Below are positions 1-1,248 of a DNA stretch of 1,257 nt, piece after piece. The notes under the pieces are model-generated. The model had not been told where the DNA came from. It was given only the letters and a program-made list of their open reading frames with translations, and searched no databases. Source of the stretch: Escherichia coli (GTDB taxonomy: Bacteria; Pseudomonadota; Gammaproteobacteria; Enterobacterales; Enterobacteriaceae); the NCBI RefSeq assembly GCF_003334815.1, contig NZ_QOWO01000102.1; one strand, 5' to 3'. Made by a program: the position numbers and the translations under genes. Position 1 is the stretch's first letter, and every line of letters starts with the position of its first letter.

Positions 1-35
1 CTGTCGGCTTCCAGTGTCAGGGCCAGTTTCATCAT
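1..35 (-). CDS. 5' end only (11 codons, [11 protein letters not shown]...) of a downstream small gene that continues past the window edge; its position matches the YeeW-like gene that follows CbtA-family toxins
   Basis: Minus-strand ATG at 35..33 overlaps the toxin TGA stop at 34..32 (ATGA), and the frame stays open to position 1. The YeeW-like assignment comes from the conserved gene order of this cassette, not from the 11 residues themselves. Confidence 0.4.
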
Positions 36-406
36 TTCGCCTCCGGATACTTACCCAGGGTGATATTGTTCACCGTTCTGTAGTTGTGGCGGGTCATCAG
101 GCCTGTTGCCCGGCGAGCCCGGAGAATATCAATGCTGTTGATTAACTGCGACGAGGCTCCTGCGCTGAATCCCGGCTGGTCAGTTCGTACCAGTGCGTAT
201 TTTTCCACGAGAAAGTTCACTGCATCACACAGTGAAATGCCTGCCTCAATATGCTGCTCAATCACGCGTTCATCCACGAACGGTGTGTCATTCAGCGTAA
301 GGCTGTAATGCTGGCCCAGTAGTCGGGAGAGCAGAGTCTGCCAGATGGTGACGGGAGACGGGCAGCACGATACCTCCCGTACATGCGTGTCGGGTAATGT
401 TTTCAT
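32..406 (-). CDS. cbtA: CbtA/YeeV-family toxin of a type IV toxin-antitoxin system (124 aa), the cytoskeleton-targeting toxin family
   Basis: The 124-aa ORF from the track starts MKTLP and ends [11 protein letters not shown]. Its length and long conserved stretches ([80 protein letters not shown]) match the E. coli YeeV/CbtA family as I recall it. Start is ATG 406..404 with an AGGA about 11 nt upstream; stop is TGA 34..32. Which paralogue it is (yeeV, ykfI or ypjF type) cannot be settled without alignment; the length and C-terminus favour yeeV. Confidence 0.9.
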
Positions 407-495: not shown

Positions 496-864
496 TTACT
501 TTTTCGTTTCAGGTGTCGGATAAACAGCCAGATAAACGTAACCACAGGAGCCGAGGGTGTCTGCTTCACAGGTCAGCCCCTTCGCATACAGTGTCACGGT
601 ATGCTGATGGCGGGGATTCAGTTCACCACTGGTGAGCATTAATTTCAGTTGTTTCATCAGCAGCGGAAAGGCCTGGTCCAGAGGGTACGCATCCGCATCT
701 CTGAACCGGCCTCTGATACCGGCACGGTCGGCAAGGTAATGCAACCGGTTACCCTCCTGCACCAGACGGGCGCCGAAACAGGGCGTCACTGTGCAGGGTA
801 GTCCCCACCAGGGATGGTCGTCATTGTCATCGGGATGCGTTGTCCCGGAAAGTGTGTCTGACAC
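496..864 (-). CDS. cbeA: CbeA/YeeU-family type IV antitoxin (122 aa from a GTG start); cognate antitoxin of the CbtA-family toxin
   Basis: The track ORF 496..972 contains the sequence VSDTLSGTT...[36 protein letters not shown]...[19 protein letters not shown], which matches YeeU/CbeA as I recall it. The GTG at 864..862 sits 7 nt after GAGGA (876..872) and gives the family-typical 122 aa; the stop is TAA 498..496. The gene lies 89 nt upstream of the toxin on the same strand, the usual antitoxin-then-toxin order. Confidence 0.88.
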
Positions 865-913: not shown

Positions 914-1027
914 TCAGCCGGTGCACAGACCGGCTTCGGTGAAGGTGTATTCGTTGATGAGCAGGACCTCATCCACAGCGGCGTCTGAGCTCAGCCAGTC
1001 GTACTCGTTTTCCGGGTGACGGAACAT
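914..1027 (-). CDS. Hypothetical 37-aa acidic small ORF (MFRHPENEYDWLSSDAAVDEVLLINEYTFTEAGLCTG) between the YeeT-like gene and the antitoxin; not in the supplied track
   Basis: ATG at 1027..1025 overlaps the YeeT-like TGA stop at 1029..1027 (cTGATGttc), and the stop is TGA 916..914. Hand-translated from the sequence. About 28 of 36 third codon positions are G or C and G is enriched at first positions; most codons are E. coli-preferred (CTG, CCG, GAA, AAC, TAC, ACC, GGT, CGT, TTC, ATC). There is no Shine-Dalgarno of its own, so expression would need coupling to the upstream gene. Confidence 0.3.
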   Translation of the reverse strand: MFRHPENEYDWLSSDAAVDEVLLINEYTFTEAGLCTG

Positions 1028-1248
1028 CAGTTCAGGGTGACGCTCATCAGCCGGACATACGGACCAAAACTGTCCTTACGGCGTTCTGCAAACACGGCCA
1101 GCACACCGGGAATATCCTGCACTTCACGACCGGTATACGCTTCAGCACTGCCGTGCCAGCGGTATTTGCCGGTACAGAACGGAAAAAGACGGGATGCCGG
1201 ATGCTGACGGTGAATACGCATGGCTTCGCCACGGGTGATGATTTTCAT
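1027..1248 (-). CDS. yeeT: YeeT-like small protein (DUF987 family, 73 aa) conserved immediately upstream of CbeA/CbtA modules
   Basis: The 73-aa track ORF MKIITRGEAMRIHRQHPASRLFPFCTGKYRWHGSAEAYTGREVQDIPGVLAVFAERRKDSFGPYVRLMSVTLN matches YeeT/YkfH/YpjJ-type proteins as I recall them. It has an ATG at 1248..1246 and a TGA at 1029..1027. Its ribosome-binding site and promoter lie beyond the window edge. Confidence 0.85.
   Translation of the reverse strand: MKIITRGEAMRIHRQHPASRLFPFCTGKYRWHGSAEAYTGREVQDIPGVLAVFAERRKDSFGPYVRLMSVTLN

Follow-up and report, generated by a model that had tools for sequence, protein, structure and literature searches.

The window analysed here, the whole 1,257-nucleotide stretch of Escherichia coli DNA, is an ordinary segment of a CP4-44-type island in which every gene lies on the minus strand. 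Its features, in the order of their coordinates, are the following.

1..32, minus strand: first 32 nt of a DUF5983 (YeeW-like) gene, downstream of the toxin (from the annotation of the best genome match, L001, CDS 7829-8032(-))
32..406, minus strand: CbtA-family type IV toxin, 124 aa plus stop (open reading frame; Pfam PF06755 CbtA_toxin, E = 9e-59)
152..160, minus strand: second variable spot of the toxin, residues 83-85 (GAS)
212..214, minus strand: codon of toxin Phe65, a conserved FtsZ-interaction determinant of CbtA, YkfI and YpjF
362..367, minus strand: toxin Cys14-Cys15 codons, TGC TGC
362..391, minus strand: toxin patch, residues 6-15, in the majority 'DTHVRE...C' form (translation)
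496..864, minus strand: YeeU/CbeA-family antitoxin, 122 aa, GTG start according to RefSeq (Pfam PF06154 CbeA_antitoxin, E = 4.5e-53)
914-1027, minus strand: 37-codon gene remnant between the DUF987 gene and the antitoxin
1027..1248, minus strand: DUF987 (YeeT-like) gene (open reading frame; annotated as DUF987 in all best genome matches; aligns with K-12 yeeT)

Matches to the whole window are present in 4,935 of the 5,426 complete E. coli genomes, where the copy number per genome has a median of 3 and a maximum of 15 (∼13,700 copies), and the same four genes (DUF987, antitoxin, toxin, DUF5983) are annotated in more than 4,700 E. coli genomes. The toxin has a DUF987 gene upstream and a DUF5983 gene downstream within a CP4-type cryptic island. 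The best genome match is 99.6% identical to the window and lies between yeeA and cobU, the place of CP4-44 in K-12, in a neighbourhood that also holds JAB/RadC, antirestriction and AIDA-repeat remnants. In that genome (NZ_CM147848.1 422233-439489) the island is heavily decayed, with IS100, IS110, IS3 and IS4 elements and truncated AIDA-repeat (Ag43-like), DUF932 and DUF957 genes, and the toxin-antitoxin pair is still intact.

The genes on either side of the pair vary between strains. The ATG of the DUF5983 gene overlaps the stop codon of the toxin (window 30-35 (-), ATGATGA context); in the alignment this start lies 12 nt earlier in the window than that of K-12 yeeW, and the gene encodes 67 aa in the best genome match compared with ∼162 aa in AR_0081, P19_598 and UTI89. 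On the other side, the 37-aa reading frame at 914-1027 (-) is the C-terminal remnant of a ∼215-aa gene, being 79% identical to its last 38 aa. That gene is intact at the same position in UTI89 (L005 259-903) and P19_598 (L007 349-996), while the window has lost ∼553 nt of it; in K-12 the sequence between yeeT and the antitoxin is different and shorter. Open reading frames that cross the patch on the opposite strand or in another frame (345-635 +, 292-384 -) were treated as mechanical.

The assignment of the toxin is clear. It matches CbtA_toxin over the full length of the model (hmmscan, E = 9.1e-59; query residues 1-112 on model positions 1-112 of 112); NCBIfam models gave no match to any of the four proteins of the window, and Pfam was used instead. 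The exact protein is RefSeq WP_069904731.1, which is present on 20 contigs in public collections and is the toxin annotated in the best genome match (100% identical). In alignments the toxin is 85% identical to K-12 CbtA, 62% to YpjF and 58% to YkfI. Phe65 is invariant across the window toxin and the three K-12 toxins and is found in 81 of 83 family sequences. A YeeU/CbeA-family gene lies on the same strand, 89 nt upstream of the toxin start; its product is 89% identical to K-12 CbeA and is annotated at the same place in the best genome match as WP_001295723.1. Residues 4-17 of this antitoxin (814-855 (-)) form a variable N-terminal segment ahead of the Pfam domain, which starts at residue 18, and the segment is absent from YafW and YfjZ.

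A strict orthologue of K-12 CbtA would carry the VLPGQAASSR tail with Arg15, and position 15 of the window toxin is Cys. Arg15, however, is not a family-defining residue: Cys15 is the majority residue (57/84) and is also found in YpjF and YkfI. Databases and the literature (Heller et al. 2017) already contain the gene and the exact protein and show that residue 15 is not conserved. We would also like to point out that many public 'CbtA' proteins of 130-145 aa (P0045, P0047, P0051, P0059, P0083 and others) start upstream or in another frame and enter the toxin frame within the patch or directly behind it. Such entries, some of them starting with ...ENITCITRAGG..., look like frameshifted copies or mis-called starts at this 5' region.

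The earlier note had described residues 6-15 as a divergent patch with an adjacent Cys-Cys pair on a conserved scaffold. Translation confirms that 362-391 (-) encodes residues 6-15, and alignment with K-12 CbtA (NC_000913.3 b2005) shows that 9 of these 10 residues are changed. The cysteine pair is present as Cys14-Cys15 (TGC TGC, 362-367). As for the scaffold, the toxin is indeed 92% identical to K-12 CbtA from about residue 16 onward, but a second divergent spot at residues 83-85 had been overlooked, where the window has GAS and K-12 has CTR and only 8 of 15 nt are identical in gene nt 241-255. In total there are 18 differences between the two toxins, 9 within residues 6-15 and 9 within the other 114 residues. 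Such clustering has a hypergeometric P of 3e-8, and none of 200,000 permutations gave any 10-residue segment with 9 differences. The same contrast is seen in the DNA: gene nt 16-45 are identical at only 11 of 30 positions, no better than unrelated sequence, whereas the first 15 nt are identical at 14 of 15, the remainder of the gene is ∼90% identical to K-12 cbtA, and almost no differences are seen in the intergenic sequence before the toxin gene. Codons 16-124 hold 29 synonymous and 9 non-synonymous differences. The clustering thus goes far beyond what chance would give and the patch is real, although it stands out solely against the K-12 reference.

How the patch looks within the family is a different matter. 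We aligned 84 distinct full-length members, drawn from 5.8 billion proteins and 1.84 billion cluster representatives, and computed the entropy of each column. The entropy of the N-terminal half peaks at residues 6-9, 11 and 14 (1.7-2.5 bits), residues 83-85 reach 2.0-2.6 bits, and the segment 16-70 lies mostly below 1 bit. Judged by this alignment, residues 6-15 are the most variable segment of the CbtA toxin family, which supports the suggestion of paralogue diversification, here among CbtA paralogues and alleles. Within this variable segment the window toxin is conventional. It agrees with the family majority at 8 of the 10 positions (D6, T7, H8, V9, R10, E11, S13 and C15) and departs from it solely at V12 (15/84, with A in 64/84) and C14 (8/84). 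Among the 84 sequences, position 15 is C in 57 and R in 23, and position 14, where variation within the tail is greatest (R, S, P, C, H, G; 2.5 bits), is R in 28, S in 23, P in 13 and C in 8.

The DNA of the patch is likewise common. The exact 60 nt that span it occur in 848 of the 5,426 complete E. coli genomes and versions at least 95% identical in 1,957, while the K-12 form of the same 60 nt is found in 3,510, more than the window form. Among the 120 protein clusters closest to the window toxin (90% identity, member-weighted), a set biased toward the query's own form of the patch, DTHVRE-type tails make up most members; the exact window patch accounts for 6 clusters with 345 members and the DTHVREASCC tail for 417 members. 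A protein with the same patch, differing from the window toxin at two residues, is on at least 1,000 contigs. The toxin tails of E. coli thus very probably come mainly in two unrelated forms: DTHVRE-x-S-x-C, carried by the window, by UTI89 and by most database clusters, and VLPGQAASSR, carried by K-12 CbtA. The idea that the window holds an unusual version of the toxin does not survive this comparison, as its N-terminal sequence is common and unremarkable in the family alignment, and the label 'divergent' is reference bias from comparison with the laboratory K-12 toxin. A full-text literature search with the peptide string 'DTHVRE' matched no paper.

The cysteine pair can be described in the same terms. 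In otherwise near-identical alleles codon 14 is TGC (window, AR_0081), CGC (P19_598) or GGC (UTI89), and codon 12 is GTA or GCA; Cys15 is also carried by K-12 YkfI and YpjF. The window tail differs from the majority form by two single-base changes, A12V (GCA to GTA) and R14C (CGC to TGC), the latter of which creates the pair beside the family-typical Cys15. On these codon comparisons, the Cys pair is Cys15 plus a one-base variant at a hypervariable codon 14.

If two unrelated tails sit on one scaffold, it is necessary to ask how they came to be there. The two forms of the patch have no detectable DNA similarity, while their flanks are ∼90-100% identical. The toxin of UTI89 is identical to K-12 cbtA at 246 of 252 nt over the 3' two-thirds of the gene and at 12 of 30 nt in the patch, which is of the DTHVRE type, and its upstream region is completely different from that of K-12. 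The window toxin combines a K-12-like upstream region with a DTHVRE-type patch and its own 83-85 spot. In P19_598 the DTHVRE patch goes with K-12-like residues 24-31 and 83-85, and strain 52F4 has a DTHVRE-type toxin at the CP4-44 locus, where K-12 carries the other form. Patch form, flanks, 83-85 spot and locus are thus combined independently of one another, a pattern indicative of recombination or gene conversion between paralogous copies. Recombination of this kind would move the two tail forms between paralogous toxin copies. Plain relaxed constraint alone does not explain the sharp boundary of the patch, which needs either ancient divergence followed by recombination, or diversifying selection.

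We found no solved structure of a CbtA relative: phmmer against PDB sequences gave only a chance match (E = 0.52), and Foldseek, queried with the AlphaFold2 model, found no PDB entry with E < 0.9. The AlphaFold2 model of the toxin, built from a 63-sequence alignment (mean pLDDT 82, pTM 0.70), consists of five helices (residues 18-34, 46-55, 59-70, 91-101 and 106-117). Before helix 1, residues 1-17 are modelled as coil, where pLDDT drops below 50 at residues 7-11, and the 83-85 spot falls within a predicted long loop, residues 71-90. In published modelling and molecular dynamics of K-12 CbtA, Q10-P16 and T75-T84 were the two most mobile segments (PMC8828653). Taken together, the predicted coil and loop and the published mobility suggest that both variable spots map to flexible, surface-exposed regions. 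There is good reason, from these models and the family alignment, to expect that residues 6-15 belong to a flexible N-terminal tail, the region under least constraint in the family. We also considered a structured 5' end of the toxin mRNA and rejected it, since the fold z-scores of the two alleles are -0.03 and 0.01. No known RNA family covers the patch, and the sole Rfam match was a chance snoRNA elsewhere (E = 0.88).

What the tail could do is best judged from work on the K-12 toxins. CbtA binds both FtsZ and MreB. The F65S substitution abolishes FtsZ binding in CbtA, YkfI and YpjF, and R15C abolishes MreB binding of CbtA; cells expressing the R15C mutant form filaments instead of becoming lemon-shaped (PMC5624674). 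Arg15 is the only known MreB-binding determinant of K-12 CbtA and is not conserved in homologues (PMC5624674). The tail is thus functionally non-inert in at least one background. YpjF and YkfI, which carry a natural Cys15, nevertheless both block elongation, and YpjF binds MreB; the C15R substitution causes no change in either, and what determines elongation inhibition by these two toxins is, according to the authors, unknown (PMC5624674). By analogy with these characterised relatives, the window toxin is most likely active. Its target on FtsZ would be the H6/H7 loop, contacted by the conserved surface that contains Phe65, and MreB would be inhibited too, as it is by YpjF with its natural Cys15.

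We favour the reading that the patch is an ordinary common variant of a hypervariable tail that has been recombined among paralogues, and we hold it with considerable confidence as the best explanation of the data. The most serious competitor is that the tail is a target-specificity module, so that DTHVRE...C tails would make an FtsZ-only, filament-inducing toxin or alter the mode or affinity of MreB binding. The window toxin is, after all, a CbtA scaffold with a natural Cys15, and a region of UTI89 carrying a DTHVRE-type toxin (with ASGC) was enriched in a screen that selected filamentous cells by flow sorting (PMC6206680). That screen, however, gave no morphology for the clone, and lemon-shaped or enlarged cells could also have been sorted. 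A docked model with a salt bridge between Arg15 and MreB E261 speaks for a role of the tail in MreB binding, but Arg15 was imposed as a docking restraint, so the model is not independent evidence (PMC8828653). Against the proposal, the behaviour of YpjF and YkfI with Cys15, and the lack of effect of C15R, indicate that residue 15 is context-dependent. Moreover, the whole tail differs in the window, beyond residue 15, and our literature search found no binding data for DTHVRE-type toxins, nor experimental data of any kind on a DTHVRE-type allele. We consider this alternative unlikely, though worth keeping in mind. Somewhat more doubtful still is its extended version, in which tails can be exchanged as modules to tune or switch the targeting of MreB, the DTHVRE...C form being effectively an 'R15C' toxin that is FtsZ-biased and filament-inducing, and recombination shuffles the forms within a genome and so diversifies the effects on the cytoskeleton.

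The remaining alternatives fare much worse. It was suggested in the earlier note that the patch could alter antitoxin specificity, and one could imagine that patch and cognate antitoxin evolve together and that the patch decides which antitoxin neutralises which copy in genomes with several paralogues. Insulation between copies could be useful where a genome has three or even 15 of them, and the antitoxin too has a variable N-terminal segment. But the type IV antitoxin CbeA is reported, as summarised in PMC6521040 from Masuda 2012, to act on FtsZ and MreB polymers and not on the toxin. Furthermore, antitoxin residues 4-17 are exactly shared by UTI89 and K-12 despite their different toxin tails, so that UTI89 joins a DTHVRE-type toxin with the N-terminus that partners a VLPGQ-type toxin in K-12, and the same antitoxin WP_001295723.1 accompanies toxins that differ elsewhere. 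With pairings that cross the tail forms, such coupling is very improbable. A similarly slim chance can be given to the idea that vicinal Cys14-Cys15 works as a redox or metal-binding switch peculiar to the window allele. Adjacent cysteines are uncommon and the variant is no singleton, with ∼760 members in the clusters of the window patch and of DTHVREASCC, and its exact DNA recurs across many genomes; yet the C, R and G variants at this most variable position are one base apart, the pair lies in a predicted disordered tail of a cytoplasmic protein, and no other conserved Cys or His cluster is nearby to complete a metal site. Finally, it is next to inconceivable that the patch arose from a sequencing error, or from the K-12 sequence by a compensated frameshift. 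A double frameshift would indeed give a short, fully divergent block between identical flanks, but translation of both alleles in three frames gave no cross-frame match, a gapped DNA alignment needs four indels and recovers only short matches, the same 60 nt recur in 848 independent complete genomes, and more distant genera have similar tails (R10-E11-A12-S13-x-C15). An origin by compensated frameshift was rejected on the first three of these grounds.

The common, recombined tail variant that we favour has one practical consequence. K-12 CbtA, the experimental reference, differs in its tail from a large fraction of the natural members of the family, and the conclusions on Arg15 and MreB may for that reason not transfer to many CbtA copies in pathogenic E. 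coli. If it were true that the tail controls MreB targeting, it would be a natural specificity module, shuffled by recombination, within a toxin that inhibits two cytoskeletal proteins. Beyond the question of Arg15, the patch matters little as it stands.

Among known systems, K-12 CbtA (YeeV, CP4-44, b2005, NP_416509.1) shares with the window toxin the length of 124 aa, the gene order yeeT-cbeA-cbtA-yeeW and Phe65, and the closest genome match to the window occupies the same chromosomal island position. It differs in residues 6-15, which are VLPGQAASSR with the MreB determinant Arg15 in K-12 and of the DTHVRE type with Cys15 in the window, and the K-12 locus is without the 114-nt gene remnant between yeeT and the antitoxin. 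Closer in the tail are the toxins of UTI89 (UTI89_C1149, WP_001094434.1), AR_0081 (WP_000854759.1) and P19_598 (WP_000854721.1), which have a window-like DTHVRE-A/V-S-x-C tail with 26-30 of 30 patch nt identical, the same Pfam family and the same neighbourhood; the patch of AR_0081 is identical to that of the window. These relatives differ by single bases at codons 12 (A/V) and 14 (R/G/C) and by other combinations of downstream polymorphisms (T27/S27, D31/G31, residues 83-85 and the C-terminus). UTI89 in addition has a different upstream region and, unlike the window with its remnant, an intact 214-aa gene before the antitoxin.

YpjF (CP4-57) and YkfI (CP4-6) of K-12 resemble the window toxin in having a natural Cys15 together with Phe65, and dual inhibition of division and elongation has been reported for them. 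They are shorter (109 and 113 aa, respectively) with a different C-terminus, and their tails, ATISQAAKPC in YpjF and AITQRAVKPC in YkfI, are not of the DTHVRE type. The laboratory mutant CbtA-R15C (Heller et al. 2017, PMC5624674) is, like the window toxin, a CbtA scaffold with Cys15. It differs in that a single substitution in a VLPGQAASS-R tail was accompanied by loss of MreB binding and by filaments, whereas in the window the whole tail is different.
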